Below are positions 18,103 through 49,062 of a stretch of 58,745 nucleotides of DNA, piece after piece (positions within the stretch are counted from its first letter, which is position 1; every line of letters begins with the position of its first letter). Source of the stretch: a virus (Duplodnaviria > Heunggongvirae > Uroviricota > Caudoviricetes); IMG/VR virus record IMGVR_UViG_2531839662_000025. The stretch is one strand, 5' to 3'. Under the pieces are notes generated by a model. The model was given only the letters and a program-made list of their open reading frames with translations, ran no database searches and had not been told where the DNA came from. The translations under genes were made by a program, and so were the position numbers.

Positions 18103-18129
18103 CTGACGGATTTCAGGTTCAGCGGTATA

Positions 18130-19371: not shown

Positions 19372-19553
19372 TACTCACCTCCGGAGGCGACCCAGTGACC
19401 ACGATCGAGATAACGCGCAACCAGCCACGACCAGCACAGGCACAGCCCCCCGGCAACAACAAAACCTGCCGGGGGATAAATCAGCCATGTGCCATACGAC
19501 AGCAAAAGCGCCCCCAGCACGCCCACCAGTGGCGTGAGAATTATCAGAAACAT
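19371..19553 (-). CDS. small hydrophobic membrane protein
   Basis: 60-aa ORF with two predicted transmembrane stretches between terL fragment and portal. Confidence 0.4.
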
Positions 19554-19564
19554 AATGACCTCGG

Positions 19565-20290
19565 TTAAAGCGAGCGAATACCAACGCTGACCAGATGCTC
19601 AGACAGATCCGGCTCCGGTTCACCGCCATTGACCAGCATCCGGCTCATTGCTGTAAACATCGCAACAGGACCGTCGATTTTGGCTTCCGGCGTGGATTTA
19701 TTCGGGAAGATATTGTTGTTTTTGTCCGGTTTCACCGTAACGTTAGACATCATCCAGTTCATGACCGGGTGATTGCTGTGGTGGAAACGTCCGGCATAGA
19801 CCAGTGATTCCGTTTCCTTCATGGCCTCTGACAGATTGCGGACCGTCTGCGGAACTTCCACCAGCGGTATACCTTCTTCAGCCAGCGCCAGACTGAACTG
19901 CATTGCGCTCCACGGGTCAAATCCCAGTTCCCTGAGGTTTTCACCGCCAATCCATTCCAGTAAGTCACTTTTTATCTGAGCATGATCGATAACATCACCA
20001 TCCGTCAGGATGAGCTTATCCATCTCCGCCCACTTCCGGTAAAGTTCTGCCTGCTGCCGCGAGCATCGCTCCAGCCGTCCTTCCGGAAGCCAGAATTTAA
20101 AATCAGCATGAACATGTCCGTTATCGGTTCGCCAGAGTTTTGCCGCCGCACAGATATCAATCTTATGAGCAAGGTCGACGCCGACCCACATGGGATATGT
20201 TTTCAGCTCATGTTGTGGAGCAATGTATTCGCACTTCTCCCACTTAATCATATCCATCCAGGCAGATTCGGCAGTGACCCACACATTCAT
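19565..20290 (-). pseudogene. terminase large subunit, C-terminal (nuclease) fragment of the host prophage
   Basis: 241-aa ORF aligns by eye with the C-terminal third of the intact TerL at 20817-22478; N-terminal two thirds lie 15 kb away at 35283-36303. Confidence 0.8.
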
Positions 20291-20293
20291 GTG

Positions 20294-20309
20294 TTTGGTA
20301 AGAATATTT
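20294..20309. repeat. putative att core (left junction of satellite)
   Basis: TTGGTAAGAATATTTC; imperfect direct repeat of TTGGTAAAAAAATTC at 35276-35290, located at the terL break point. Confidence 0.5.
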
Positions 20310-20376
20310 CAAGTTTTTTAAAATCACCTGTATATCAATCATTTAACATGAAAAAACAGTCTTTATAAATCATCGA

Positions 20377-20397
20377 GCAATACACAGCGCAATACAC
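20377..20397. repeat. arm-type repeat GCAATACACAGCGCAATACAC
   Basis: Near-identical tandem motif also at 35125-35145 just inside the other satellite end. Confidence 0.5.
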
Positions 20398-20582
20398 GTA
20401 TCTGTATTGTTTTAATGCTGATACACACCGTTTTTTGATACAGTGATTCGACCTACCATCGCGAAGCATTTTTTATTTCTTGTGTGTAACAATCTGACGA
20501 GGTGAGCACTCAAAGAGATAAGAGGCAGTAGAAATTTCGATCCCCCCTGAATGCAATTTTTCGTATATATATACAAAACAGT

Positions 20583-20741
20583 GCGGGTTATGCGGGTTAG
20601 CGGGTTATCTTCGCGTGCTAAGTATTTTTTACTCTTTAATATCAATACGTTAAAAAACAACGTATCTAAATATCAGCCAGAATGTAACCCGCAAGACATT
20701 CAAAATAACCCGCAAACACCACTCAAATAACCCGCAAAAAC
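20583..20741. repeat. iteron cluster (GCGGGTTAT motif), three direct plus three inverted copies around an AT-rich spacer
   Basis: Direct copies at 20584, 20593, 20602; inverted copies at 20686, 20706, 20728. Confidence 0.7.
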
Positions 20742-20816
20742 ATCCCTGAAAGTGGGTGCCGATAATACTGAAAATTTATTCCATTAAATGAGCATTATCC
20801 TCTCTCATCCATTCCG

Positions 20817-22478
20817 TTACACACCATCAAACGTCGCAAGCCGCTCTTTGTGGCTGTCGCTCATATCGAATGCAAATTCCTCATGCTCTGCCTGGAATGT
20901 GCCAAACGCCATCAGCGCCGCAACGCTCGGGTCTATCTTGTTGGATGATTTTTTCTTGTTCGGCTTGATATTGGCGTTCGCGTCACTCTGCATCACAACA
21001 TTACTCATTGACCAGGCCAGCACCGGATCACCACGATGCACAATCACCTTCCGGTTAACAAAAACTTCGAACGATTTCGCCGCCGGACTGAAACGAAGGT
21101 ACGTTTGCGGGAACGGCTCCACCTCAAATCCTGCGCCCTGTAGCTGCGTCCTCAGGTGCGTGGCGTTCCATGTATCGAAACCCACCAGCCTGATATTGAA
21201 ATTCTCTGCATCCGCCATGATGTCATCACGGATACGGTCATAATCAATGCAGTCACCCGGTGTTGTGCGTATCCAGCCCGCCTTTACCCACTGGCGATAG
21301 ATGGCGCGGTTTTTATTGGCGGGGTTCTGTAGCTGAAATTCCGGCAGATAGTGACGGGAAACCAGCATAATCTTTTTACCGACCGGAAAGGCATAGCACA
21401 CGCTGGAAATATCGCTGGTTGATGATAAGTCCAGCCCCGCGTAGCACTCCTGCCCGTATAAATCCGCCTCCGCGAACGTTCCGGCGCACTCCGCCCATGC
21501 ACCGTTACCCATCCACGGCGTGGCCCCCTGACACCAGATATTGAATCGCTTGGTGAGCATTTCCACCCACTGCGACGGAATACCCCGCGCTTTCTGGATG
21601 GTTGAGGCCAGTTTTTCACGATCGACGGAAACATCGATATTGGGATTCGCCTTTATCCACATCGCCGGATCGTCAACCTCGCTTTCATCATCCAGCTCGT
21701 AAATCAGCACGAACATGGATTCGTTCACCTCTTCACCATCCAGTATCTGGCAGCAATAGTCGTAGTGTTGTTTACAGGCTGAAACAACGTTGCTCCCCGA
21801 TGTGGTGATGGCAAATAATAACCCCTCCGGACGCGCCCCCATTCCCAGTTCAAGCGCGGAATAAACCCCGTTGTCAGGGTGCAGGTGATATTCATCCACA
21901 ATGGCAAGACTCGGGTTTGTACCTTCAATGGTTGCCGCTTTTGCTGCCAGTGGCTTTAACAGGCTGTTGGTTTTCGGGTGTATCACCTTGTGTGCCTGAA
22001 TATTTACCCGCTTTCGCAACGGTCGGGATAAAAGGCACATCTGACGCGCATCATCAAACACGATCCGCGCCTGATCACGACTCACGGCGGCGGTGTAAAT
22101 ATCCTGCTGCCCGTTTTCCATAACCAGAAACCAGTTAGCCAGGATAGCGGCGACCGTGGATTTGGCATTTTTTCGCGGCACTTCAATGAATGCGCTGGTG
22201 TATTTGCGCCGTCCGGTGGCCTTAACCTTAAAGCCCAGGATGCACGCAAAGGCGAACTGCTGCCACGGCTCCAGCTCAATGGGGCTACCGCGCATTGCGC
22301 CTTTTACGTGCGGACACACCCTGGAAAAGGCAATAAACCGCTCCACGACCTCCGGATCGAACGTGTAAAGGGGGTTTTCAAGGTCAGAAAAATACCGTTT
22401 AACGGCCTGTTTCAGTCGTTTACAGGCCGTAATTTTGCCGTTTTTTACGCCTTCTGCGTACTCATGCCAGGCGGTCAA
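20817..22478 (-). CDS. terminase large subunit (satellite-encoded, intact)
   Basis: 553-aa ORF with ATPase and nuclease halves. Confidence 0.85.
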   Translation of the reverse strand: MTAWHEYAEGVKNGKITACKRLKQAVKRYFSDLENPLYTFDPEVVERFIAFSRVCPHVKGAMRGSPIELEPWQQFAFACILGFKVKATGRRKYTSAFIEVPRKNAKSTVAAILANWFLVMENGQQDIYTAAVSRDQARIVFDDARQMCLLSRPLRKRVNIQAHKVIHPKTNSLLKPLAAKAATIEGTNPSLAIVDEYHLHPDNGVYSALELGMGARPEGLLFAITTSGSNVVSACKQHYDYCCQILDGEEVNESMFVLIYELDDESEVDDPAMWIKANPNIDVSVDREKLASTIQKARGIPSQWVEMLTKRFNIWCQGATPWMGNGAWAECAGTFAEADLYGQECYAGLDLSSTSDISSVCYAFPVGKKIMLVSRHYLPEFQLQNPANKNRAIYRQWVKAGWIRTTPGDCIDYDRIRDDIMADAENFNIRLVGFDTWNATHLRTQLQGAGFEVEPFPQTYLRFSPAAKSFEVFVNRKVIVHRGDPVLAWSMSNVVMQSDANANIKPNKKKSSNKIDPSVAALMAFGTFQAEHEEFAFDMSDSHKERLATFDGV

Positions 22479-22818
22479 GCTCGTCCTCTTCCTCTGTTTC
22501 CGGTGGATTTCTGCGGCGACTTACCGGGTCAAAACCCAGCAAAGAAGCCATTTTGATCATTATTCTTTCCGCGTCAGCCTTTGCGCTCAGGGCGGGGTTT
22601 CTGCTCTCGCTGCCCTGACTGTTAACAATGCTGAACCCGCGCGTGGCAAGGTCTTCGACGGCTTTGCGGTATATGGAGTAGTTAACGCAATACAGCTCCA
22701 GATTGCTCCAGTCGGCGGGGGTAAGGTCTTCCCGTCCGGAAAGCTGGCGCGATTTTTCCTTCCACTGCCTGACCGCGATTTCATCCAGGTAAGCGGGGGC
22801 TTTTGGTGGTCTTGCCAT
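22462..22818 (-). CDS. terminase small subunit (P27-family-like)
   Basis: Track ORF 22462-22959; likely start MARPPKAP at 22818; upstream of TerL. Confidence 0.65.
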   Translation of the reverse strand: MARPPKAPAYLDEIAVRQWKEKSRQLSGREDLTPADWSNLELYCVNYSIYRKAVEDLATRGFSIVNSQGSESRNPALSAKADAERIMIKMASLLGFDPVSRRRNPPETEEEDELDRLA

Positions 22819-23106
22819 GTTCTTTTTTCGCCCAATTATTTTCAAAAAAAATCCCGTGCACAAAAATTTGAGGAGGCGGTCGGTGTCCGGCAGGGACGGT
22901 TTCGTCCTGAAAACCTCCCCCACCCCCTCTGACAGCCTCACCAGCGATTGCGAAAACATTCCATGACCTCGCGGTCACGGTCGGTTAATCGCTTCGCTGT
23001 GGTGCGTTCTGTGCGCCCTGTCCTGTTAGCTTTGTGCCCTGTCTCCTGTGTCTTCCATAAGTCACGCTGCCTTATCAGTCCACGTATCAGCCTGTTTTGC
23101 TCCTGT

Positions 23107-23547
23107 TCAGTCATCATCGCCATACATCCAGTCGTTACGATGTGCCGCCCGTTCTTCCTGCTCGCGATACATACCCGCCTTACGGTTCGCTTTCGTGGCT
23201 GGATCTTCCCGTGTCGTCTTACGGTTGTGGCACGTCTGGCACAATGCCTGGTGGTTCCACTCAGGCCAGAAGAGAACATCACCGCCGCCATTGATGGGAA
23301 TGATGTGATCCACCACAAGAGCTGGCGTATAAATCCCCTTAGCCAGACAACGCACGCATAACGGGTTTTTGCTCAGGTACAGGGCGCGGTATTTGTCCCA
23401 CTGTCGGGAATACCCGCGCGCGCGGCGGTGTCCCCGTCTGGCATCCTCTGCACGCCATGCAGCCCGCCTGTGCTCTTCACACTTGCCGGACTTCACGCGC
23501 TTATTACAGCCCGGCTCAGTGCATCGCCTTAATGGTTGCCACGGCAT
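23107..23547 (-). CDS. HNH endonuclease (packaging-associated)
   Basis: 146-aa ORF with Cys and His motifs, adjacent to TerS as in HK97-like cos phages. Confidence 0.75.
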   Translation of the reverse strand: MPWQPLRRCTEPGCNKRVKSGKCEEHRRAAWRAEDARRGHRRARGYSRQWDKYRALYLSKNPLCVRCLAKGIYTPALVVDHIIPINGGGDVLFWPEWNHQALCQTCHNRKTTREDPATKANRKAGMYREQEERAAHRNDWMYGDDD

Positions 23548-23846
23548 CAGTACACCCCCACATCACGATAAACCGACCAGAGCGCAGAAATAGCCATAGG
23601 CAGTTCAGACTGCTCCACTGGTGAAACTGCTTCCCTGTTCTCGTACAGGAAAGCGATGTACATCAGGCAACCAACACGCATTGCCGGGGTAAATTCCAGC
23701 CCGTCTTCAAAACGTTTCCCGATATGCTTCTGGCAGGCTTCCAGCGCCGCATCGGTATACATTTTCAGAAGTTCGCCTTCTCCGGAAAAGTCATCAAGGC
23801 GAAGATGTGCCCTGACCTCATCAGGTGTAATTTTTTCTTCACTCAT
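23547..23846 (-). CDS. head-tail connector protein (gp6-like)
   Basis: Track ORF 23547-23927; likely start MSEEKIT at 23846. Confidence 0.6.
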   Translation of the reverse strand: MSEEKITPDEVRAHLRLDDFSGEGELLKMYTDAALEACQKHIGKRFEDGLEFTPAMRVGCLMYIAFLYENREAVSPVEQSELPMAISALWSVYRDVGVY

Positions 23847-25053
23847 CTTTTTCACCTTTAATTTCCACCGTCTGCTTCCATGCCTGGCTGAATTCGTCGC
23901 CACCTTCGCGCGGCGGCATCCCCTCACGTTCGCGGGCTTCGTTCGGATTCATGATCCCGTTCTTAATCCCTTTCTCATACGTGGCGTAACGCTCGGTAGG
24001 GGTGGCGCGCAGTAAATCGGCTGAATCAAACTCAACCAGATAACGGGTACCAGGTACGGGAGAAGCCACCAGCAAAGCGGCCTTGATTTGCTGTTCGAAG
24101 TTCGCCAGCCACGGACGCATTGTCATAGTCAGAAACGCGCGGCTTGCCTCACTGAAATTGCTGTAGGTGCTGTTGCTGTATTCCTGAAGAAAAATCGGCG
24201 ACACGTTGAACATACGGGCAATGTCTTCAATGGAGAAGCGACGGGAGGCCAGCCATTCCGCATCCTGGTTACTCATCCCCAGTTGCCTGTAATCCATGCC
24301 CCCTTCAAGGATTGGCGTTTTTCCGGCATTTTTCGCCCCCTTATAGCGTTCCAGAGCATCTAATGCCTGTTTACCTTTCACGCCGTCCAGCCATTCGCCT
24401 GACGTGATAATCCCTGCCGCCATCATGCCATCTTTCATAATGCTGGCTCCGTGGCGCTGTTGAGCAAGGCCAAGCCCCAGCGCCTCACGGCAAATCGTGA
24501 CAGGGGAGCGCCCCAGAAAGCCATCATCCGAGGCATAGCGGAGATGCAGAACTTCTTCCTGTAAATACGTGCGTACCGTTCCTGTATAGGGTTCGGTGAT
24601 GGTATAGCGGTATTTGTGTGCGCCTGTGCGTTCCGGTACAACACACCCCGGCGCATAAGGATGAAGTGATTTTGGCTGACCGTCCCGCCCCCACTCAATA
24701 ACCGCATAGGCGTTACCGTTCAGCAGGCAGTGACGCATCATTGTGCGTTTAAACTGGTAAGGTGTCTGGCACGAATTAGGCTGCTCATTCAGCAGAATAT
24801 CGACCGGGTGACTGTCCAGCCATTCCCGCGCCTCCCTGCCCTTGTCATTGCGTACCAGATACAGATAACACGGCATCGTGGCCACCGCCTCAGCGATGAC
24901 AGAAACCGCGTTCATCACAGCAGGCAATGATTCAGCCGTCCCGGCAGAAACATATTCTCCGGATCCGGTATTCGGTACGCCGGACAGCGCCAGAAAATCA
25001 TCAATGGACAGGTTACGCAGATCGCTTTTTTTACGACTAAAAGGCCACCACAT
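23839..25053 (-). CDS. portal protein (satellite-encoded)
   Basis: Track ORF 23839-25143; likely start at 25053 abutting protease stop. Confidence 0.8.
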   Translation of the reverse strand: MWWPFSRKKSDLRNLSIDDFLALSGVPNTGSGEYVSAGTAESLPAVMNAVSVIAEAVATMPCYLYLVRNDKGREAREWLDSHPVDILLNEQPNSCQTPYQFKRTMMRHCLLNGNAYAVIEWGRDGQPKSLHPYAPGCVVPERTGAHKYRYTITEPYTGTVRTYLQEEVLHLRYASDDGFLGRSPVTICREALGLGLAQQRHGASIMKDGMMAAGIITSGEWLDGVKGKQALDALERYKGAKNAGKTPILEGGMDYRQLGMSNQDAEWLASRRFSIEDIARMFNVSPIFLQEYSNSTYSNFSEASRAFLTMTMRPWLANFEQQIKAALLVASPVPGTRYLVEFDSADLLRATPTERYATYEKGIKNGIMNPNEAREREGMPPREGGDEFSQAWKQTVEIKGEKDE

Positions 25054-25054
25054 A

Positions 25055-25615
25055 TCACAACCCCGCCAGTTCAGCCCAGCGATGACGATTATTTCCTGTC
25101 GGGCGTAATTCAGGGTGCTGTGCAAACAACGAACGGTGGGCAATCTCCACGCCGGATTCGGGATAAGCAGGCATCGACGTTATCGTGATTTCACGGAGTT
25201 CTGCGGCGGTAACAGTGCGCAGATACGGTTTTTGCGCGATATTCCACTCTTCGCATAATGCGCGAAAGCCAAAGCTCATTCCTGTAATGTCGCCACGCTC
25301 CACCAGCGTAAGCACATCTTTTCCAAGCTGGGTATCAGGCGGTGTCAGTTCAAAACGTAGCCCGGTGTTGTCCTCAGTCAGTACCAGTGTTCCGGATTTG
25401 GTGCGCCCCAGCAGTCGGGTATAGTCATGCTCATACAGGCAGCGCACATCATTACCCGCCGCCAGATAGTCAGCAAAAGCCCCCGGCGTGAACTGTTCGC
25501 GGAATTCGTCCCAGATAATTTCTGAAAGGCTGTTCCAGCGAACGGCATAACCCACCAGTTTTTTATCGCTGGCGGTCAGTTCAGATGTACGGATTTCAAA
25601 ATCGGTATTTTGCAT
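25055..25615 (-). CDS. prohead protease (HK97 family, satellite-encoded)
   Basis: Track ORF 25055-25831; likely start MQNTDFEI at 25615. Confidence 0.75.
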   Translation of the reverse strand: MQNTDFEIRTSELTASDKKLVGYAVRWNSLSEIIWDEFREQFTPGAFADYLAAGNDVRCLYEHDYTRLLGRTKSGTLVLTEDNTGLRFELTPPDTQLGKDVLTLVERGDITGMSFGFRALCEEWNIAQKPYLRTVTAAELREITITSMPAYPESGVEIAHRSLFAQHPELRPTGNNRHRWAELAGL

Positions 25616-25664
25616 CGGTGTACTCCATAAAGCTGAAAAAGGAGGCCGAAGCCCCCTTTGCTCA

Positions 25665-26810
25665 TTACTTGCCAGCCTGAATTTCCAGAATCTTGATGGC
25701 GTTCGAATCCACCACACCACCGCCCAGATATTTCTGGGTATAGATGTTAATGAATCCAGGTTCGCTGAAATCCAGACGGGTACGCGTACCGGTTTCATGG
25801 TCAACGATGAAATAACCGCGCTTAAAGTCACCTACTGCAATCACACCGTCCGGCATAAATTCCAGATATTCAACCGGAAGCCCCAGCAGAGAATCAGGAT
25901 CACCAGCCTGTAAACGATCGCGCCAGATGTAATCACCAGTGGCATTTTTCAGTTTTTGTGCGGAGGCGGCTGTATTTGAGTTCATCACCCATACAGCTTT
26001 TTTGCGGTACTTATTGCGCAGCGTAAATTTCAGGTCAATCAGCATGTCGGCGCTGAGACTGCCAGTAACTTTTTTCGTCTGGAGCGTACCGAAAGGACGG
26101 GTTTTGTCGTTATCCGCAGTGCGCGGAAAAGCCAGGAAACCTTTAGCTTTTTTCTCGCCATCACCGGAAACCAGATCCGTTTCTTCGGTATCAACGAAAG
26201 TGTCGCCAATTTCAGAAGATAACCAGCCCATAATATCGACTTCGGAAAAATCGATAATTTCCTGAGTGGTTTTCGGGTAAGCGTAGATCGGATACAGGCG
26301 GATACTGACTTCATTCAGTTTTGGTGTTGCCGTCTGGTTACGTGCCGCACCTTCTTCGCCGTGTTCAACGACCGCACCCCCGGCAGAAACCAATTGCTTA
26401 AATTCATTGCTGTGAATGGTTTTAACAGTACAGATTTTACGCATCACCGATTCATCAGAAAGCTGACGCATAATTTCTCTGTTCAGTTCCGGGATAACCG
26501 TATAACCACCATCAGCCGGGACACTGCCGGACAGGTTGCGGGTTTCCCCGGTCAGAATGTAAGAGCGCAGTTCGTCTTTGGTTATTTTCTCTTCGACGGA
26601 AACACCAGGCTGGTTACGTTCTTCATCAGCCACAGATTCGAGGCGGGAAATTTCTGTGTCGAGGGAATCGGCTTTTGCACGCAGTTCATCAAACTGTTTG
26701 CCCTCGTCATCGTTCAGGCTGCGGTTTTCACTGTCGGCTTTTTCCAGCAGGGATCGCATCTGGTTTTTCAGGGCGGTTTTTTGCTGGCGGAGTTCGATTA
26801 ATTTCTTCAT
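25665..26810 (-). CDS. major capsid protein (HK97 fold, satellite-encoded)
   Basis: 381-aa ORF with N-terminal coiled-coil; related in pattern to the host prophage MCP. Confidence 0.85.
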   Translation of the reverse strand: MKKLIELRQQKTALKNQMRSLLEKADSENRSLNDDEGKQFDELRAKADSLDTEISRLESVADEERNQPGVSVEEKITKDELRSYILTGETRNLSGSVPADGGYTVIPELNREIMRQLSDESVMRKICTVKTIHSNEFKQLVSAGGAVVEHGEEGAARNQTATPKLNEVSIRLYPIYAYPKTTQEIIDFSEVDIMGWLSSEIGDTFVDTEETDLVSGDGEKKAKGFLAFPRTADNDKTRPFGTLQTKKVTGSLSADMLIDLKFTLRNKYRKKAVWVMNSNTAASAQKLKNATGDYIWRDRLQAGDPDSLLGLPVEYLEFMPDGVIAVGDFKRGYFIVDHETGTRTRLDFSEPGFINIYTQKYLGGGVVDSNAIKILEIQAGK

Positions 26811-27104
26811 GAAGGTTTTCTCGTATTGGTTAAGATTCAGGACGTGAAACCAACACGGAGGGAGCGCCGCCCGACACTCTCGGCATCTCGCAGATCAACC
26901 CGGCATCGCGCAGGGGGTCAGGCGGCATTGTGGCGGCTCACGTCTGAGTGCCACACGCCAACATATACATAAAAATCAGTATGTAAACATCAGCCAGAAT
27001 CACCGAACAACCTGGAACAACCACGAACAAATAATTTACAAAACCTGAAAAAATAAATAAGCTGTTCCGTACATTTTCTGCTCGTCAATCAGGAGGAACG
27101 AACT

Positions 27105-27578
27105 ATGTCAGAAAATGAACTGAAAAAAGCAATGTTCATTCAGCAACGATTGCAGATTCTCCACCTTGGTAAACACTATGATGAGTTCAGCGATTCTTAC
27201 GTGTATGCCTGGGAGGCAGATGTTTATCCTTTCTTGCAGGATGGCGACGGAAGTATTCCTACTCGCCCACATGAAATTTACGAAGAGTTTTTCGGCACAT
27301 CTAAAAACAAAGCTAAAAAGATATACGATCGTCTGTGCAAAGCCTGGCACGACCGGGAGGCGCTCACATTCTATAAACTAGAAAGTGAATATGGTGTAAC
27401 AAGTAGCAGCATGCACGGATGGACACGAAGTGATTTACTTCACATTTGCCGCTATCTGTATCTTGAGGGGTGTTTCGATAAAGATTTCTGGGAAACATTA
27501 CTGGAAAACGGAAAATGCCCAAGCGAAGCACTTTACCTTAGCGATGAATTTAATCGCGATACAGAGATCGACTTCTAA
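27105..27578 (+). CDS. hypothetical protein (accessory cargo gene of the satellite)
   Basis: 157-aa ORF on the opposite strand to all flanking satellite genes, lower GC, own terminator; no family recognised. Confidence 0.6.
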   Translation: MSENELKKAMFIQQRLQILHLGKHYDEFSDSYVYAWEADVYPFLQDGDGSIPTRPHEIYEEFFGTSKNKAKKIYDRLCKAWHDREALTFYKLESEYGVTSSSMHGWTRSDLLHICRYLYLEGCFDKDFWETLLENGKCPSEALYLSDEFNRDTEIDF

Positions 27579-27580
27579 AA

Positions 27581-27614
27581 ATAATGGCCTGGAAAATACC
27601 AGGCCATTATTATT
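27581..27614. terminator. bidirectional rho-independent terminator
   Basis: 10-bp stem AATGGCCTGG/CCAGGCCATT with T/A runs on both sides, between convergent genes. Confidence 0.6.
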
Positions 27615-27902
27615 CTACCGTTTCACGGGATCACGCATTCTGCGCCTTATTTTCCACAGATATTCGATCATCGCTTCCACCTGCTCACGGTTGGTTGCGA
27701 AAATTTCCCCGGTCAGTGAGCTACGCAGAAAATCATGATGATCCACAAAAAATAACGCATCGGAAGAAAGCAGCCGGCGATATTTTTTTACTGTCGTGGT
27801 TTCCAGATCATCAAAACCATGAAACTTTTTATGTTGCTGAACTTCTTCAAATGTCACAGGCATGTTTCCTCCTGCTACCACGATACCAGAAACAGTTAAC
27901 AA
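27615..27902 (-). CDS. hypothetical protein
   Basis: Track ORF; likely start MPVTFEEV at 27863. Confidence 0.4.
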   Translation of the reverse strand: MLTVSGIVVAGGNMPVTFEEVQQHKKFHGFDDLETTTVKKYRRLLSSDALFFVDHHDFLRSSLTGEIFATNREQVEAMIEYLWKIRRRMRDPVKR

Positions 27903-28204
27903 CCGTTATCAATTATCCCCTTTTTTTTCGGGTAGTTCCTGAACATCTCACCGCCAGGTTTCTGTAAGCCCATCCCGGTATGTGTGCGGTTTATGGCCTC
28001 TTTCAGTATTCCGAAATTATCCGGTATGACTGGTTGGCGCGCTGCCTTACGGATACATTCCGCGCGACGCTTTGCCACCTGTTCGCGCTCCTTGTCAGTG
28101 CTCACCAGCCACATAACATCAGCCCAACGTGCCGCCGCTCTCCGGTACAGCCCTTTAGCCTCCAGTTCTTCCGCTTTGCTGTCTTTAATCATGCTGTACC
28201 TCAC
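27896..28204 (-). CDS. PerC-family transcriptional activator homolog
   Basis: About 100 aa containing AEELEAKGLYRRAAARWADVM, the PerC/Pch signature as I recall it. Confidence 0.55.
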   Translation of the reverse strand: MRYSMIKDSKAEELEAKGLYRRAAARWADVMWLVSTDKEREQVAKRRAECIRKAARQPVIPDNFGILKEAINRTHTGMGLQKPGGEMFRNYPKKKGIIDNGC

Positions 28205-28207
28205 TGC

Positions 28208-28633
28208 TTAAAACGGTATCCCGTCCCCGTACGGATCATCGTGCTGGCCTGTCTGTTGTTTTGCCCTGTTCAGTGCGTCAGTAGCCTGGCCCTGCTGGCC
28301 TTTTTTGCCGCCCGGTCGCGCCGTTCGCGCACTGATTACGCTGTCTGCGATGACCTGCCAGCCCTGCCGCATTTCGCCGTTCTGGCCTGTCCACTGGCTT
28401 ACCTGCATGTTACCCGCCACACTCACCAGTTCGCCTTTCTGGTGTTTTGCCAGTGCATCGGCCTGTCTGCCAAACGCCAGGACGGATAACCACATCGTCG
28501 CCGTTCCGTCATCTGCCTGGCTGCACGGCAGGGGAACCGCCATACTCGCCATAGCCATTTGTGTCCCCTTGCTGGTGGTCTTTAACTGCGGGTCAGCCAC
28601 CAGCCGCCCGTAAGCCGCTATCTGTGCTGTCAT
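28208..28633 (-). CDS. single-stranded DNA-binding protein-like
   Basis: 141-aa ORF with Gly/Gln-rich linker and acidic C-terminal tail ending DGIPF. Confidence 0.55.
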   Translation of the reverse strand: MTAQIAAYGRLVADPQLKTTSKGTQMAMASMAVPLPCSQADDGTATMWLSVLAFGRQADALAKHQKGELVSVAGNMQVSQWTGQNGEMRQGWQVIADSVISARTARPGGKKGQQGQATDALNRAKQQTGQHDDPYGDGIPF

Positions 28634-28696
28634 GCTGTCTGTTCTCCGGTTTTAACGTTGATTGTTACGCTTGTTTACACCCTTACGGTGAAATTC

Positions 28697-28820
28697 TGCG
28701 GGTTATAATCGCACTTTTGCGGGTTATAACTGCCGTTTTGCGGGTTACGTGCGGGTTATTGATTTCCTTTTTATTCATACAGTTAATGCACTTATACACA
28801 GGATAACCCGCATAACCCGC
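28697..28820. repeat. putative satellite replication origin: GCGGGTTAT iterons at 21-bp spacing plus inverted copies
   Basis: Direct copies at 28697, 28718, 28739, 28751; inverted at 28803, 28812; immediately downstream of primase. Confidence 0.65.
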
Positions 28821-28843
28821 AACTTTTCACCTCACACAGGGGG

Positions 28844-30964
28844 TTAATCTTCTGCCTCAGGCTGGAACATCAGCACGTAAAAAACATGCTGCTTCCCCCC
28901 AATTTTGCCGAGCGCCTTTTTCTTGTAACGGCGATCGTTACCCGCTTCCAGCATTCCGGCAGCACTCAACGCGCGGGCAAAGTGAGACGGATTAAATCCC
29001 TGTGCTATCTCACCCTCAAATACATGCGGGAACGTGTAAAAACGGAACTCGTCATCTTCGTTTCTGATACTCCCCTTTCTGTATCCGGCAAGCTCTTTAA
29101 TCGGTAAATCACGCTCGTCGGTGTTGGGCCACGGAAGGTATCTGCTGAATCCGAACGACGCTAAAAAAGCCTCTGCCTGTTCAACCATCTGTTTAAACTC
29201 CCTGTTACCCGTGCCGAACTCCTTCACCCAGGCATTAAAATTATGCTGAATGGCATCGCGGCACGCCTGAACATCCCAACCAGTAATATGGACGGAAAGC
29301 ACCAGCGCCGACTCCAGCATGGCGAATCGTTCCCCCACACGGTGAACCTGTTCGCCGTAACTCTCCGGTATCAGGTTGCGCCACCGTTCACGGCATGCCC
29401 TTACCGTATCCTTTGCCTCCTGCTGGTGGTCTGCCAGCCATTTAACCCATTCACGCCCCGCCGCCCCGTGATTTTCTGTCCAGGCATCCTTTAACGCGTC
29501 TGCGTGTGCCTTTCCGGTGCTGTATTCGTGAAACTGCGTGGCTTTTTCCATTGGCACGTTAAGCAGGCGGACAAGCTGCCCCGCCTTGACTTTTATCCCC
29601 TCCGTTTTGAGGAATGTCTCAACGTCCATTTCTCCGGTGCTGATTGCCACCGTGCGCCAGTGTTTGATCTCCCTGTTGCCGCCGTCCTTCGCCCCCTGTA
29701 ATTTCCCCGAACCGTTAAACAGCGTATAAGCCGACGTGGACACTTCCCGCGCGTTTCCGGCCTGACCTATTTCATCTAGGGGTAATAGCCCGTCATTGTG
29801 CGCCTCTGCCTCGTTGGCGATGCCTAACGCTGTACCGTACCAGGTCAGCCGTTGCGCGTCCGGCTCTCCCCATAAACTGGATGCGATGTTCTGTGTGGTG
29901 GTTTTCCCTGCCGATGACTGTTCGAAAAGATGTACCCCGAAGCCGTCAGCGCCCACCAGCCCGATTAATGGTGCAGATAACGATACCGCCACACCCAGCA
30001 TCATGGACGGATTACCACCAGCCAGCCGCGCAACGGTATCGCGCCAGCCCTCCGCCGTTCCTGCCACGGAATAACCATTAACAGCAGCCGTTTTTCCGGT
30101 AAACAGGACTGGCTTTTCGCAATCACCAATGACCGAACCGTCCGGCATGATGTACGCGCCAAAATGCCAGCCCGTTGTTGTGCTTAACTGCCATTCCTCA
30201 TGGTTTCCGCTTAACTGCATCCAGTCAGCCAGGATAGCCCTGTATTTGCCGTTGGTTGTCACGTTCAGGCCGTGGTCTTTCAGCAACCGCCAGCCGTCAC
30301 GGTCGCCAATGCCACCACATGGGATCGCCATTGTGATGACTTCATGGTTTGCTGGCTTTTTCCAGCGCATCACGCGGTAATGCTCTTTACCGATCGTCCC
30401 CGTTCCCAGTAGTTCAAGCGGAGAACATAACCACGTCTCAGGCCGGATAATTTCGCCTGACTGCTTGTCCACTTTTGGCGTTACCCAGAAAACACCATCG
30501 GCGCGGCTTTCAACGCGGGGCTTTAATTCATCATCGCCCTGGCTTTCTGTGATTTTTTTCTTTAAGGGCAACACCAGACTTTCCCCGCGCTCGTATTCGT
30601 CTTTCAGTCGGGCAAGCTGTGGTGTCCAGTCCTCCAGTAAATCGCCGTTCTCGTCACAAAAACAGGCTTCCTTAACACCAGCCACTGCCAGCAGGGTTTC
30701 AATCTGTAGCGCCAGTTTGTCATCCAGTTTTCCGGCACGTCTGACGATGGCGCGTGACCGACCATCATCCACAATACGCAGGTTTTCCAGATTACCCAGG
30801 TCACGCCGTCCGAGATAAACAGGTGGTATTTTGTCGCCGCGCTTTCTGGCTTCTCCGCCCTGCATGTAATGCTCTGCATGGCTGTATGCGTCATCCCCCG
30901 CAAAAATCACTGCATCCTCGCCTTTATCTTTCGGTAACAGTTTTACGTTCGGTGCCAGTTTCAT
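28844..30964 (-). CDS. primase/helicase (P4 alpha-like replication protein)
   Basis: 706-aa ORF with Walker-type NTPase region (SSAGKTT). Confidence 0.7.
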   Translation of the reverse strand: MKLAPNVKLLPKDKGEDAVIFAGDDAYSHAEHYMQGGEARKRGDKIPPVYLGRRDLGNLENLRIVDDGRSRAIVRRAGKLDDKLALQIETLLAVAGVKEACFCDENGDLLEDWTPQLARLKDEYERGESLVLPLKKKITESQGDDELKPRVESRADGVFWVTPKVDKQSGEIIRPETWLCSPLELLGTGTIGKEHYRVMRWKKPANHEVITMAIPCGGIGDRDGWRLLKDHGLNVTTNGKYRAILADWMQLSGNHEEWQLSTTTGWHFGAYIMPDGSVIGDCEKPVLFTGKTAAVNGYSVAGTAEGWRDTVARLAGGNPSMMLGVAVSLSAPLIGLVGADGFGVHLFEQSSAGKTTTQNIASSLWGEPDAQRLTWYGTALGIANEAEAHNDGLLPLDEIGQAGNAREVSTSAYTLFNGSGKLQGAKDGGNREIKHWRTVAISTGEMDVETFLKTEGIKVKAGQLVRLLNVPMEKATQFHEYSTGKAHADALKDAWTENHGAAGREWVKWLADHQQEAKDTVRACRERWRNLIPESYGEQVHRVGERFAMLESALVLSVHITGWDVQACRDAIQHNFNAWVKEFGTGNREFKQMVEQAEAFLASFGFSRYLPWPNTDERDLPIKELAGYRKGSIRNEDDEFRFYTFPHVFEGEIAQGFNPSHFARALSAAGMLEAGNDRRYKKKALGKIGGKQHVFYVLMFQPEAED

Positions 30965-31260
30965 TTTTTACCTCTGGATGCGCTGAGCATGCTTTTTATT
31001 TTCTTAATATTTTCCCGTGCTTTTTCCCTGCTGGTGGGCTTACCGCGTGTTGCGTTCTGTACCAGAGAAAAATCACGCCGGAACTGATAAACAGGCATCA
31101 CGCAGTCATAGCCGTACCCATCACGGCGGTAAGTAACACACCGTCCCGCCACGCTTTTAATCGTTACAGTGCCGCCGTATTTATCTTTGAAAATATCGCC
31201 GGGGCGGATTTCAGGCCGAGCGGGGCCGCTGGCAGTAAAGCCAGAATTTTTCTGTTTCAT
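30961..31260 (-). CDS. hypothetical protein
   Basis: 99-aa ORF overlapping primase start. Confidence 0.45.
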   Translation of the reverse strand: MKQKNSGFTASGPARPEIRPGDIFKDKYGGTVTIKSVAGRCVTYRRDGYGYDCVMPVYQFRRDFSLVQNATRGKPTSREKARENIKKIKSMLSASRGKK

Positions 31261-31265
31261 GGTTT

Positions 31266-31493
31266 TTATTCCGCGTTTATTTTTTTATCGTGAATTTCGA
31301 TCGCTTTATTTAATTCGACGATTACCGTATCGAGTAATGAAATAAACGCACCAGCAAGATTAGATTCACGTTCATCTTCCGGCGCATCACTTAAACCATC
31401 AAGCCAGATAAGCAATATTTGCCGCAAACATTCACTGTTAGTCAGTGCGTTTTCTGCATGGCTCATTGATTTTAAATAACTGTCATCATGCAT
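31266..31493 (-). CDS. hypothetical protein
   Basis: 75-aa acidic ORF. Confidence 0.4.
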   Translation of the reverse strand: MHDDSYLKSMSHAENALTNSECLRQILLIWLDGLSDAPEDERESNLAGAFISLLDTVIVELNKAIEIHDKKINAE

Positions 31494-31689
31494 GGCTCAC
31501 CCCCTGACGAATACGGGCGGCGAATACCATCACACAGCCATCAGGAGATTGCTGGCGTGCTTCCTGTTCGCTGGTGGCCTCGATGTGAATTACGCGCGGT
31601 TGTGCCGTACTCAGGGCGATAAAACGCCAGATATATTTATTCAGGTTGTGCGAGTCCCGCCCTTGCGGGTGTGTGGTATGATTTAACAT
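31486..31689 (-). CDS. hypothetical small protein (67 aa)
   Basis: C-terminal part of the 357-aa track ORF; begins MLNHTTHP just downstream of the divergent promoter region. Confidence 0.35.
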   Translation of the reverse strand: MLNHTTHPQGRDSHNLNKYIWRFIALSTAQPRVIHIEATSEQEARQQSPDGCVMVFAARIRQGVSHA

Positions 31690-31766
31690 AGCTACCTCGA
31701 TACTCTTGCTATCGTTGGTGGTTAGACGCCCTGCATGTGTTGCGAGCACTGCGGGGCGTTGCTTAA

Positions 31767-31867
31767 TTTGAGTGACAAAACTCAAACTGTGCGCACAGAT
31801 TAAAATCATGTGTGCGCACATGTCAATACTTAACATCTCATTTTTTTTGCTGTATTGTGTGCGCCCA
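31767..31867. promoter_or_regulatory. divergent regulatory region with palindromic operator-like sites (TGTGCGCACA)
   Basis: Perfect palindromes at 31788-31797 and 31808-31821, half-site at 31856-31867, inverted repeat at 31767-31786. Confidence 0.5.
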
Positions 31868-31894
31868 TAAAGTCCATTTAAGTGAGGTGCATCA

Positions 31895-32092
31895 ATGTCT
31901 AGCGGTAACACAAACAACAAATCAGCAAAGAAAAATATTCGATTCCCACATGAGCTTATAGATGGGATTGATGCCAGCGTTGAACAAGAAAAATTAACTA
32001 ATCCTAGTGCTAATTTTTCCGCATGGGTCTTAGATGCCTGTGGACGCAAATTAAAATATGAACAGCGCCGGAAGGCCAAAGAATCAGAATAA
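31895..32092 (+). CDS. small putative DNA-binding regulator of the satellite
   Basis: 65-aa ORF transcribed away from the operator-containing promoter region. Confidence 0.4.
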   Translation: MSSGNTNNKSAKKNIRFPHELIDGIDASVEQEKLTNPSANFSAWVLDACGRKLKYEQRRKAKESE

Positions 32093-32134
32093 TCACTATC
32101 AGCGCCGTGGTGTGAGTAACTACGGCGCATTGCT

Positions 32135-32323
32135 ATGCAGGACAACACAATGACCGATAAAGAATTGACCAAAACATTATCACCGACACGGAAAAGACGG
32201 CGCAGAAAGATAGAGCATGAATCAGAAAGATTCGCACCTTGTTCGTTTGCTCTTGAGAAATTCCTTAAAGAGCGCAGGAAAAAGCTCTCGTTGCAAACCC
32301 TGGAACGAACCAAATCTGACTGA
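32135..32323 (+). CDS. small basic hypothetical protein
   Basis: 62-aa ORF followed by a plus-strand terminator. Confidence 0.35.
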   Translation: MQDNTMTDKELTKTLSPTRKRRRRKIEHESERFAPCSFALEKFLKERRKKLSLQTLERTKSD

Positions 32324-32389
32324 TCACATTGCCCACCAGCCGCAAATGTGGCATTGTTGGTGATGCTTTTGTTTTCCCTTGTTCCCACT

Positions 32390-32419
32390 GGCGACCCTTT
32401 TGCGGTCGCCTTTGTTTTG
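32390..32419 (+). terminator. rho-independent terminator
   Basis: GGCGACC/GGTCGCC stem followed by a T-run. Confidence 0.55.
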
Positions 32420-32703
32420 CCTGTTATCCGGCAATAGTGGCGCTTCGTCACCTGTCTGATATAATTCCACAGCTTATATTCATTTTTTGCGCAGTAGGTT
32501 AATTGTTCGCAAGGGCGCTCCGGCAACGGGGCGCTTTTTGTTTTTACCCACCAGCACAATAAAAATCTTCATTTTCCATTTTTGTAAAATTTCATGCTTT
32601 CCGGACGACTGGTCATATGTCATTTTTTAGCAGAAGATTTTGCCTTGCTGGTGGGTAGCTTCCCGGTCAACACGATGTACCGTATAATCAACACCGCGTG
32701 TGG

Positions 32704-33282
32704 TTACTGAATACGCTCACCAAAGTAAAACTCAGGCTGGTATTCACGTATCAGCCTTTTTTCTTCTTCCTCCAGCTCACGCTTTTTGCGCTTACATGCC
32801 TGTAGCTCCCTCCCCTTCTCACTGGCACTTATCTGGTATTGCTCTTTGCGGCGGGAAAAATCCTGTAATGCGCCCCACGGGATACCATAAGCCCCCGTTT
32901 TTCTGATACCCGGTATCACATTTCTGAATACCCAGTTACTGAAACGATGAGCAAATGTGCCAGGCGTCGTTGCTTTGCGGCTGCGGGCTATTAGTTTGTA
33001 GAAACCTGACTCGGAGATAATGCTCATATTCTGATTTCCTCCGGGGGTGTAAGTTAAATTTACTCCCTTTTCGTCATCATCAAGCATCTGCAACGCCGTA
33101 CGCGAATTGGTCAGTTCCAGCGCAGCACAAACATCCTTTGCAACAAACCACGGATCGCCGTTTAGATACACCACACGAACATCCACGCCATCAAAGCGCA
33201 GAACGACCAGATCACGAATATCACAGAATTTTTTCACATGACGTGCGTCACCCTTGCCCGTCACGGCAATATTTTTATTCAT
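32704..33282 (-). CDS. Bro-N domain protein (antirepressor-like)
   Basis: 192-aa ORF with Bro-N-like N-terminal region. Confidence 0.55.
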   Translation of the reverse strand: MNKNIAVTGKGDARHVKKFCDIRDLVVLRFDGVDVRVVYLNGDPWFVAKDVCAALELTNSRTALQMLDDDEKGVNLTYTPGGNQNMSIISESGFYKLIARSRKATTPGTFAHRFSNWVFRNVIPGIRKTGAYGIPWGALQDFSRRKEQYQISASEKGRELQACKRKKRELEEEEKRLIREYQPEFYFGERIQ

Positions 33283-33301
33283 TGCTTTTTACCTCACATA
33301 C

Positions 33302-33328
33302 AAAAAACCCCGCATTGCGTGGTGCGGG
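33302..33328 (-). terminator. rho-independent terminator
   Basis: 7-bp GC-rich stem followed by U-run on minus strand, after the AlpA-like gene. Confidence 0.6.
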
Positions 33329-33339
33329 GTTGTCGGTAA

Positions 33340-33618
33340 TTACTTATTGGCGTTTTTGTATGGGCTGTTTACTTCCTTTACTCCTGGCGGATGCATAACC
33401 CACCAGAGCACATCAGAGAGCAACCAGGAAACAGACACTTTCCCTAAATGAGCACGAGCAGGAAATGCTCCCTCCTGTTCAAGTACCCAACGTCTGCTTC
33501 TTGAAAGCCCGGTACGATTGGCACACTCATGTTCGCGTATACGGCGATCATACGGTTCGCCATGATCTTTCAGAATCTGAATGCGTTCTTCGGGTGTAGG
33601 ATAAATAAATTTTTGCAT
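33340..33618 (-). CDS. AlpA-family regulator / excisionase-like
   Basis: Track ORF 33340-33648; likely start MQKFIYP at 33618; small HTH protein. Confidence 0.55.
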   Translation of the reverse strand: MQKFIYPTPEERIQILKDHGEPYDRRIREHECANRTGLSRSRRWVLEQEGAFPARAHLGKVSVSWLLSDVLWWVMHPPGVKEVNSPYKNANK

Positions 33619-33681
33619 AAAAATATCACCTATAAAAAAACCCGCCAAAAGACGGGTTGATTATATCTCATTTAATTTAGC

Positions 33682-33915
33682 TCAGGGTTTCCATTCACCT
33701 TTTACCCATTCCAGCACCTCAGATAAGCGCCAGACTTTTGTTTGTGGGCCAATACATATTTTTCGTGGAAATTTTCCTTCCTTTTCAAGTAACGATCTGT
33801 GTCTCCTGCCAAGAGCGGTTAACCATGCACATTCATCTTCCTTAATCATCCTGTCGATTGTTTCATCATTTTCAAGTTCTTCACGCGTAACTATTTGAAT
33901 CATTACTGTCACCAC
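33682..33915 (-). CDS. AlpA-family regulator / excisionase-like
   Basis: 77-aa HTH ORF next to integrase. Confidence 0.55.
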   Translation of the reverse strand: MVTVMIQIVTREELENDETIDRMIKEDECAWLTALGRRHRSLLEKEGKFPRKICIGPQTKVWRLSEVLEWVKGEWKP

Positions 33916-35104
33916 TAATTTGCTTATTCAGATAGTCGTACCACCAGTTCATAGCTTCTTTTTTTCTGTCCATATACTGGCTTCTGTTATAAACCCCGGC
34001 AACACCGCCTAATGTGTGCCCAAGCAACTGTTCAACCACATTATGTTCAAAACCATGATCACTTAGTTTTGTGGCAAACACTCTTCGCATATCATGCGCC
34101 GTCCATTTCTCCGAGTGTTTCATCCTTTTCCATGTCTTACCGATAGTTACGCTTGCCGTACACTGACGCATATCAAACCCAATCACATTTTCTTTGTTAC
34201 CTGTTATTTTTTTTAACGTAACTAACCAGTTAAACATGCCATCAGGAATCGGTCTGATTATTTCCCTGCCATTTTTGCTATGATCAGCGGGAACGCGCCA
34301 TAATTTCTTATCAAAATCCCACTCTACCCAGGACGACAGTAATACTTCTGACAGTCGACAACCAAAAACTACCAGGAAACGTAAAATAATTCGGTTTTCA
34401 TATGATAATTCGTGATTGTCATAATCAGTATTAATACTTCGCCATAAATCTCTGATTTCATCATCTGTTAAAACCCTGCTTCTTCGCGCAGACTTTTTTC
34501 CCACATCACAGACCTCAAGATCATCAATTTCATGACTAATCGCGTATTTTCTTACCCTACAAAATTTAAGCGCCTGTTTTGATATACGCAACAAAGCTCC
34601 GGCCTGTACAGGTGCTACTTTTTTTATTTTGTCAAAACACTTAATCCACATAGATATAGAGCAATCACTAAGTGGTACATGACCAATCACCGGATAAATA
34701 TGTTTACCAAAGCACTGCCTGATATGTTCTGCTCCCCTACGCTTATCCATTGCATAATTATCAAGCCAGTATTCAAGTGCCTCACGAACGGTAACAGGTT
34801 GCAAGGTGGCTTCCCGTTCAATTTTTATCTGAATCCGTGGATCTCTGCCCTCCGCAAGCCAGGTTCGACACTGATCGCGCATCTCTCTCGCTGATTTGAG
34901 ACTCAGATCAGGATATTTTCCAAGTGTCAGCCAGATGGGCGCGGTTCCCCTTCCCGCCAGTCTGTAAAAGAAAACAAAACTAACACATCCGTATTTACTG
35001 ACCCGTACCGAAAGCCCGTTACCATCAGCGATGGTTTCCTGCCTCTCACTCCTGCGTCCAAGCAGGGAACGAAGTTTTTTATCGCTCAGTTTGTTTAGCG
35101 CCAT
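33881..35104 (-). CDS. tyrosine integrase (P4-type)
   Basis: Track ORF 33881-35140; likely start MALNKLSDKKL at 35104; P4-type N-terminal arm-binding pattern and C-terminal catalytic region. Confidence 0.8.
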   Translation of the reverse strand: MALNKLSDKKLRSLLGRRSERQETIADGNGLSVRVSKYGCVSFVFFYRLAGRGTAPIWLTLGKYPDLSLKSAREMRDQCRTWLAEGRDPRIQIKIEREATLQPVTVREALEYWLDNYAMDKRRGAEHIRQCFGKHIYPVIGHVPLSDCSISMWIKCFDKIKKVAPVQAGALLRISKQALKFCRVRKYAISHEIDDLEVCDVGKKSARRSRVLTDDEIRDLWRSINTDYDNHELSYENRIILRFLVVFGCRLSEVLLSSWVEWDFDKKLWRVPADHSKNGREIIRPIPDGMFNWLVTLKKITGNKENVIGFDMRQCTASVTIGKTWKRMKHSEKWTAHDMRRVFATKLSDHGFEHNVVEQLLGHTLGGVAGVYNRSQYMDRKKEAMNWWYDYLNKQISGDSNDSNSYA

Positions 35105-35124
35105 GTGATTTATAACCCGTTTTT

Positions 35125-35145
35125 GCAATACACAGTGCAATACAC
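35125..35145. repeat. arm-type repeat GCAATACACAGTGCAATACAC
   Basis: Direct repeat of the motif at 20377-20397. Confidence 0.5.
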
Positions 35146-35275
35146 AAATGATGAAAACAGCCAGAACCTTCCAGAAAAAACAAAAACGACGAACAAGAAA
35201 AAATCTTTTTCTTTCATTTGGTTACTAAAAAAATCAGGACAGGTCGCACTGTTGTTACGGCGTGATGTTACTTTC

Positions 35276-35290
35276 TTGGTAAAAAAATTC
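35276..35290. repeat. putative att core (right junction of satellite)
   Basis: TTGGTAAAAAAATTC at the point where the host terL reading frame is lost. Confidence 0.5.
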
Positions 35291-36303
35291 ACCCGCGCAG
35301 AGACCTGCTCCTTCGCTTTTTTCGCCAGACGACGCAGATCATCCCAGCGTTTACAGATGCCCAGGCCAGGATTCGCTTTCTGCCAGACCGTTTCATCAAA
35401 CGGATCATCTCCCTCATCGAGCGTGTAAATGATCGCAAAGTAGGAGTCGTCTTTTACCGCGCCCTCCACGTCGCTGTTATAGCCTCGCAATACCTTAATG
35501 GCGTAATCGCGCTGCTCGTAGCAAATCCCTTCCTTGTTAAAGCCAGCCGTGGTGATGCCAAATAACAGAGACTGCAGACGGGCACCGGTTGCCGTTTCCA
35601 GAACGTCCCACACGTCACGGGTTTTATGAGCATGCAGCTCATCAATAATGGCGCAGTGGATGTTCAGACCGTCCAGGTTGTTTGCATCCGAGGAAAGCGG
35701 TTCAAATTTTGATGCGCTCTGCTCCTGGTAAATCGCCAGCTTGTTGAAATCAAACAACCGCCCGAGTGTCGACCGGGCTTTTCTGACCATATTTTTGGCG
35801 TCTTCAAACACAATTCTGGCCTGGTCACGCGTGGTTGCGGCTGAATACACCTCAGCACCGCCTTCACCATCTGCCCCCGTCATATACAGGCCGATACCCG
35901 ATGACAGGGTTGATTTTGCGTTTTTACGGGCGACTTCGTTGTACGCCGTCCGGAACCGGCGCACCATCACCGGACGTCCGCTGCCATCGCTGCGTATGAC
36001 AACTTCCCCGGTCTCTTCATTGACCAGCGGAATGACAAAACCAAAAATATTAATGAGGATAAATACATGCCAGTCCATCAGTTCAATGGGCTGGCCTGCC
36101 AGCGCCCCTTTTACATGGGGCACAAATTTGTAGAAATTCAGGATGTGCTGCGCACGGGGTTCACTGAAATAAATCCCCCGCTCTTCGCCGTACTTCAGAT
36201 CATCAAGAAAACGCTGGCAGGCCAGACGGACAAATTCGCCAGCGACAATTTCTCCTGCAACAACACGTTCGGCGTAGCGGATCCCGTCAGCCACTTTTGC
36301 CAT
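35283..36303 (-). pseudogene. terminase large subunit, N-terminal (ATPase) fragment of the host prophage
   Basis: Track ORF 35110-36303: first ~345 aa are TerL-like, then the frame runs into satellite sequence and becomes low-complexity. Confidence 0.8.
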
Positions 36304-40270: not shown

Positions 40271-40345
<75 letters not shown>

Positions 40346-40348
40346 ATA

Positions 40349-40424
<76 letters not shown>

Positions 40425-49043: not shown

Positions 49044-49062
49044 ATCCTCACTTTACAACGGG

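Follow-up and report, generated by a model that had tools for sequence, protein, structure and literature searches.

What does a regulator of the PerC family do on a phage satellite? The question is raised by a minus-strand gene, here called perC, in the 58,745-nucleotide viral record IMGVR_UViG_2531839662_000025 (Caudoviricetes; "the window" refers below to this whole stretch of DNA). A preliminary description, made from the sequence alone, had placed a satellite-borne PerC-family regulator of about 100 amino acids at positions 27896-28204 and had proposed that it may alter host gene expression beyond phage interference, given that PerC homologs on horizontally acquired elements activate virulence loci in pathogenic Escherichia coli. 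Our analysis places perC inside an element that appears to be a capsid-forming phage-inducible chromosomal island (cf-PICI). As to its role, we lean towards the view that, by analogy with characterized relatives, its product would act in trans to modulate host genes silenced by nucleoid proteins, with an output like that of PchE of E. coli O157:H7 rather than that of PerC itself.

The satellite gene is a bona fide member of the PerC/Pch family, of the PchE type (O157 "group 3"). The Pfam model PF06069 (PerC) matches its product with an E-value of 3.1e-35 and 120.8 bits (cut-off 22.6) over profile positions 1-89 of 90. In BLASTP comparisons, the prototype PerC from plasmid pMAR2 of enteropathogenic E. 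coli (EPEC) is 45% identical to it over 87 amino acids (E 9e-27), and PchA is 51% identical over 87 amino acids (E 2e-29); in the family alignment, identity to PchD is about 34%. Sequences of PchA, PchD and PchE were taken from the annotation of strain Sakai. The ten residues that are invariant throughout a 32-sequence family alignment (A7, L10, E11, G14, R17, R18, A19, R22, W23 and C46) are all retained, and the near-invariant M74, G75, F84 and R85 are likewise present. The family assignment made in the preliminary description is thus borne out by significant similarity to PerC and Pch proteins over the full length, and the motif it quoted, AEELEAKGLYRRAAARW, is found at residues 7-23. At the DNA level, a search with the EPEC perC gene reaches only pEAF-type plasmids; the Pch genes are beyond its reach. 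A weak tblastn match of the motif elsewhere in the window (47294-47329, E 1.2) falls in an open reading frame (ORF) that is a DUF4406 gene in the E. coli UMNF18 record, and was taken as chance.

The ORF lies where the preliminary description put it, and only its start has to be moved. Counted from the GTG at 28204, the minus-strand ORF 27896..28204 encodes 102 amino acids. Translation almost certainly begins at the ATG at 28192 instead, because this codon is preceded at a distance of 6 nt by a Shine-Dalgarno sequence read as GAGG (28199..28202, minus strand), because the aligned homologues all open with MI/MV-x-D, because the Pfam alignment begins at the methionine encoded by this ATG, and because RefSeq uses the same start. 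The gene would therefore span 27896..28192 and encode a 98-amino-acid protein plus stop, and the four codons added by the GTG are probably unused. It begins 15 nt past ssb, the stop codon of which occupies 28208-28210. The exact protein is present in RefSeq as WP_000588636.1, "PerC family transcriptional regulator", from UMNF18, whose DNA is 99.5% identical to positions 17000-36000 of the window.

Comparisons with unsaturated dS gave ratios of nonsynonymous to synonymous substitution rates (dN/dS) of 0.17-0.39 for perC. These low values indicate that the gene, despite its optional status described below, is maintained intact under purifying selection. They bear directly on the notion that perC is a decaying, non-functional passenger, which we regard as very improbable. 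Its patchy presence among related satellites and the 54-amino-acid truncated versions seen in other elements would fit decay, but the frame is intact and has a good Shine-Dalgarno sequence, the invariant residues are all in place, dN/dS is well below 1, and the identical protein occurs on 519 contigs in a large protein collection.

The neighbourhood of the gene has a counterpart in the Sakai genome, where the element annotated as "prophage Sp7; untypable" (15.46 kb) carries a primase, a hypothetical gene, a single-stranded DNA-binding protein (SSB; ECs1587), pchE (ECs1588), another hypothetical gene (ECs1589) and the capsid genes, which comprise major head protein, protease, portal and adaptor and continue to terS and terL. 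Since the proteins of the window match those of Sp7 in the same order (SSB at 70% identity, PerC/PchE at 60%, the product of an 82-codon ORF at 43% to ECs1589, and capsid at 74%), perC can be read as the collinear, same-slot counterpart of pchE, the O157:H7 "group 3" perC homologue. To judge by size and gene content, Sp7 corresponds in Sakai to EcCIEDL933, the prototype cf-PICI. The two loci are not identical. PchE differs at 40% of residues and also in its C-terminal tail, which in the window protein reads KKKGIIDNGC. Sp7 has another replication module and an extra small ORF upstream of ssb, which bears a mapped promoter (PMC7369912); it is integrated at ycfD/phoQ in Sakai, whereas the satellite of the window lies inside a prophage. 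A neighbour-joining tree groups the window protein with PchE in a clade from E. coli PICIs and separates it from PerC and PchA; being built from a short alignment with no bootstrap, it is supportive only.

Published work on these relatives provides the basis for the proposed function. PchA activates transcription from AT-rich promoters by taking apart the silencing complexes of H-NS, StpA and Hha (PMC4764244), and it is the only family member for which such relief of silencing has been demonstrated. Over-expression of pchE lowers csgD more than 7-fold and also reduces curli, biofilm and adhesion to HEp-2 cells, while its deletion slightly increases Congo-red binding (PMC6265319). In addition, pchE raises fliC about 20-fold, along with other flagellar operons and motility, and alters the expression of ler, stpA, eae and lpfA1 (PMC7369912). 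If the window protein behaves like these characterized relatives, it would act in trans on AT-rich host promoters bound by H-NS, StpA and Hha and would remodel the silencing complex in the manner of PchA. Its output would be expected to resemble that of PchE, with csgD and curli, biofilm and adhesion decreased, flhDC and flagella increased, and no LEE (locus of enterocyte effacement) activation. In that case perC would be a regulator akin to those of lysogenic conversion, standing outside the replication, packaging or interference machinery of the satellite. The sign of regulation is unpredictable from sequence distance, because activators, one repressor and one member with little LEE effect all stand at 45-60% identity.

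The virulence role suggested by the best-studied family members has to be considered at this point. PerC (BfpW) of EPEC plasmids pEAF/pMAR2 and PchA/B/C of enterohemorrhagic E. coli (EHEC) belong to the same Pfam family, have about 90-104 amino acids and contain the invariant N-terminal motif. That perC might activate the LEE and virulence as they do is suggested by the identities to PerC and PchA given above, which extend over the whole length, and by the retained invariant residues. However, PerC is encoded in the perABC operon of a virulence plasmid and PchA/B/C are morons of lambdoid prophages, neither being carried by satellites, and these proteins activate LEE1/ler, whereas the window allele falls with the PchE clade, for which this does not hold (PMC6265319). 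The group 2 and 3 genes pchD and pchE, the latter encoding the closest studied relative at 60% identity, influenced the LEE only slightly according to the accounts of Iyoda 2004 and Porter 2005 given in PMC6265319 and PMC11773190. EcCIMP1_025, a PICI-borne PerC allele that is 51% identical to the window protein, represses a LEE1-lux reporter in Citrobacter rodentium (PMC11773190). The tree points in the same direction, separating the window protein from PerC and PchA. The genomes closest to the window are mostly those of porcine enterotoxigenic E. coli (ETEC), with chicken and other isolates also represented, and ETEC is a pathotype not known to carry the LEE. A PerC-like LEE activator is consequently unlikely here. 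The part of the preliminary description that foresaw a change of host expression beyond phage interference stays plausible through the analogy with PchE; activation of virulence loci as by PerC and PchABC finds no support for this subgroup, and the repression by EcCIMP1_025 speaks against it.

EcCIMP1_025 differs from the window gene in its setting. It belongs to the classical PICI EcCIMP1, at the far end of which it sits past acquired virion-protein genes, and in the tree it clusters with alleles from Enterobacter, Citrobacter and Salmonella.

Structure prediction gives a confident model for the N-terminal part of the protein, which is predicted to form a three-helix domain similar to tetratricopeptide repeats (TPR-like) and to hold the invariant LE-x2-G-x2-RRA-x2-RW motif. 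The model continues with a fourth helix and then the conserved C-terminal MG...FR motif, the latter at low confidence. The TPR-like matches are of a kind that is generic for helical hairpins. The window protein contains no recognizable helix-turn-helix, and a sequence search of the PDB returned nothing significant (best match EF-Tu, E 1.5). The N-terminal domain matches PHROGs annotated as "transcriptional activator", and the YfdN-like proteins of phages SfII, SfIV and SfV and of Stx phages have the first ~50 residues, that is, the three-helix domain, in common with the window protein.

This architecture brings a different mode of action into play. ANR proteins, which are about 60-70 amino acids long, bind AraC-type activators, and activators of the AraC family are used by ETEC adhesin regulons. 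The perC product could be an ANR-like anti-activator that binds AraC-family virulence activators and/or H-NS and hence represses. A small, all-helical, TPR-like protein without a helix-turn-helix, as modelled, would suit such a role, and some members of its cluster are named "ANR family" by NCBI. The repressing allele EcCIMP1_025 was itself proposed by its authors to have an ANR-like function (PMC11773190). On balance we nevertheless find this doubtful, given that the Pfam PerC match is full-length for a 98-amino-acid protein and includes the conserved C-terminal half. The shorter ANR proteins are not known to have this half of PerC. No NCBIfam model matched the window protein at E <= 0.01, although that library may not include an ANR model, and PADLOC gave no match either. 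PchA reportedly fails to co-precipitate with H-NS (an unpublished observation in PMC4764244). A PchE-like modulator of silenced host genes remains the preferred reading.

We next consider how constant perC is among related satellites. Eighty IMG/VR loci with a homologous primase (58-100% identity) were retrieved and their ORFs searched with a hidden Markov model built from the family alignment; 78 of them extended 3 kb or more downstream of the primase, and these loci are not phylogenetically independent. PerC was found in 24 of the 78 and in only 9 of the 46 related cf-PICIs that have the same HK97 capsid operon (about 20%). The cf-PICIs without it show the arrangements SSB-ProQ-orf82-capsid, SSB-orf82-capsid, orf82-capsid, or capsid alone. 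PerC is thus an optional cargo cassette, occupying a variable slot between the origin/SSB region and the packaging module, and probably not a life-cycle gene. The gene that is consistently linked to the capsid operon is the 82-codon ORF (phrog_1957).

Where it is present, the gene keeps its place across a wide range of hosts. Salmonella, Enterobacter/Klebsiella and Erwinia have its homologue at the same location, as do about 17-20 of 31 loci that represent various Enterobacterales species; the order there is int, AlpA, AntA/Bro, DUF4222, primase, [SSB], [ProQ], PerC. Searches at the DNA level recover homologues from 1426 of 5426 complete E. coli genomes, and 1634 of the 1636 matching places are chromosomal. 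A further 386 plasmid records carry homologues, often beside a ProQ/FinO gene. Among 50,697 phage records, on the other hand, no match covered 80% or more of the protein; the matches were confined to its N-terminal ~50 residues.

The arrangement of transcription units around perC invites the question of whether the protein regulates the satellite itself. The genes ssb, perC and the 82-codon ORF (27615..27863, minus strand; phrog_1957 of unknown function, E 6.5e-37) are closely packed in one direction, the last of them lying downstream of perC just before an intrinsic terminator (27577..27611, minus strand; a stem of 12-13 bp and a U tract) that ends the primase-ssb-perC-orf82 unit. The terminator folds at -21.4 kcal/mol (z -5.4), and none of 200 shuffled sequences was as stable. 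With runs of A and T on both sides of the hairpin, it is probably bidirectional, serving both the perC unit and a convergent ORF of 157 codons (27105-27578, plus strand; RefSeq WP_001293446.1) between it and the capsid promoter region. This ORF, together with a 294-nt AT-rich region (GC 0.41-0.45) upstream of the capsid gene that contains one promoter-like site (26987-26960), lies between the perC unit and the start of the capsid gene at 26810. In O157:H7, pchE is co-transcribed with the upstream ssb, at a steady level that is low without induction and falls further after SOS induction (PMC7369912).

Such a layout would be compatible with PerC as a life-cycle regulator that activates, or relieves silencing of, the satellite's own packaging operon from capsid to terL. 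Its gene ends a replication-module unit closed by a strong terminator, the capsid operon is set off by the convergent ORF and an AT-rich region with a promoter-like site, the N-terminal domain matches the "transcriptional activator" PHROGs, and, where present, the gene always follows primase, SSB or ProQ in PICIs of many genera. Yet PerC is missing from 37 of the 46 cf-PICIs that share the capsid operon and have a homologous primase, so the operon must be independent of it; the gene tied to that operon is, as noted, the 82-codon ORF. For the prototype cf-PICI, induction and transfer were shown to need alpA (bioRxiv 10.1101/2022.09.08.507074). Moreover, the tandem repeat GGTTGTTC, which lies upstream of the promoter-like site for the capsid operon, shows no enrichment (3 copies, with 2.1 expected). 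We hold a life-cycle role to be improbable. A stronger version, in which perC would belong to the conserved backbone and its product would switch on the capsid operon late, was rejected on the counts of 24/78 loci and 9/46 cf-PICIs. The packaging-promoter sequences of the compared relatives are 99% identical and hence uninformative. The 82-codon ORF, found ahead of the capsid operon in most related cf-PICIs, many of them without PerC, may open the packaging module or regulate it.

The genes for SSB, ProQ/FinO and PerC were observed as neighbours both in PICIs and on plasmids (rows "PerC | ProQ/FINO"; loci L003, L012, L020, L021 and L054), which suggests a cassette common to the two kinds of element. 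A more speculative extension, to which we give a small chance, is that the three genes belong to a mobile "establishment/host-reprogramming" cassette that PICIs and conjugative plasmids exchange, with PerC benefiting the satellite. PerC would then reshape the H-NS regulon, with less curli and biofilm and more flagella and motility, and so cause the carrier to meet and adsorb helper phages more often; alternatively, it would counter-silence the incoming AT-rich DNA of the satellite. Under this extension perC would be a trait that benefits the satellite, not a bacterial virulence trait.

A PerC-family gene on a PICI is a real but already known situation. Fillol-Salom et al. 2018 (PMC6092414) pointed out PICI-borne alleles, Pick et al. 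2025 (PMC11773190) investigated them, perC appears under satellite cargo in a 2026 survey (PMC13612085), and two papers are dedicated to pchE (PMC6265319, PMC7369912). What is added here is modest: the placement of PchE-type genes in the slot between origin and SSB and the packaging module of cf-PICIs, the finding that about 20% of related cf-PICIs have the slot filled, and the TPR-like model. Still, the locus ties the published PchE regulon to a satellite of the cf-PICI type. Satellites that carry trans-acting regulators can rewire biofilm, motility and adhesion of their hosts and spread this capacity between strains on the tails of helper phages. For annotation, we advise treating perC as a conversion gene, neither as satellite machinery nor automatically as a virulence activator.

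The element that carries perC extends over 20377..35145 on the minus strand. It is delimited by a 21-bp direct repeat, GCAATACACAG[C/T]GCAATACAC, at 20377-20397 and 35125-35145, giving a length of 14.8 kb, and its identification rests on these repeats, on gene content and on collinearity with Sp7 of Sakai. Carriage of the gene by a satellite, a horizontally acquired element, as the preliminary description had it, is thereby upheld. Listed satellite genes run on the minus strand from 35.1 kb down to 20.8 kb; the 157-codon ORF is on the plus strand. They begin with an integrase (33881-35140), which is adjoined by two adjacent AlpA-domain paralogues (33340-33648 and 33682-33915; Pfam E 7e-10 and 2e-9). 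Between the AlpA genes and the primase lie genes for a Bro-N protein, an Icd-like protein (by RefSeq annotation) and a DUF4222 protein, all on the same strand. The DUF927 primase/helicase (28844..30964; Pfam DUF927 E 1e-45, phrog_1139 DNA primase E 4e-176) is followed by the SSB gene (28208..28633; Pfam SSB E 1.4e-15, TIGR00621) directly upstream of perC. Beyond the AT-rich region come genes for an HK97-type capsid, protease, portal, connector, HNH protein, TerS and TerL. Neither tail nor lysis genes are among the annotated genes of the 14.8-kb element.

The features that mark a cf-PICI on the replication side are present, namely an integrase, two AlpA proteins, a DUF927 primase and an adjacent iteron origin, as are those on the packaging side, an own set of genes from capsid to TerL in 14.8 kb devoid of tail and lysis genes. 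The element thus appears to be a cf-PICI as defined by Alqurainy et al. (bioRxiv 10.1101/2022.09.08.507074). In EcCIMP1, one of the two AlpA copies was reported not to be essential (PMC11773190). The primase is intact in the window (706 amino acids) and is annotated as frameshifted in the UMNF18 record. In a relative from strain 06-00048, a RepA-family helicase replaces the primase, and ssb-perC-orf82 and the capsid operon are kept.

The 210-nt gap between primase and ssb contains an origin-like cluster of the 9-mer GCGGGTTAT, with five copies at 28698..28820 in two orientations around an AT-rich spacer. Nine copies occur in the window as a whole, against 0.38 expected, and Sp7 has the same iterons. 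The cluster in the gap is predicted to be an origin of the PICI type. Four further copies of GCGGGTTAT lie at 20583-20735, in AT-rich DNA between the stop codon of the satellite terL and the right-hand attachment (att) repeat, and look like a second origin-like region or a remnant of one.

The convergent 157-codon ORF gave no match in Pfam, NCBIfam, PHROGs or PADLOC. Since it is found in only some related cf-PICIs, we list it as a candidate orphan cargo or defence gene.

The cf-PICI lies between two terL fragments of a contractile-tail prophage (junctions at 19565-20397 and 35125-36303), and RefSeq annotates the flanks as "TerL missing C-terminus" and "TerL endonuclease subunit missing N-terminus". 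When the flanks are simply joined at the 21-bp att core, no intact prophage terL results. The criteria of the published cf-PICI search demanded attachment sites that prophages never occupy, and six attB sites in E. coli were reported there (bioRxiv 10.1101/2022.09.08.507074). The surrounding prophage may be defective, because in the UMNF18 annotation it has an insertion of the IS66 family (IS679, 47472-50061) and several frameshifted structural genes. It also carries tRNA-Gly and tRNA-Thr genes (40271-40424). The split-terL arrangement recurs in at least 25 complete E. coli genomes.
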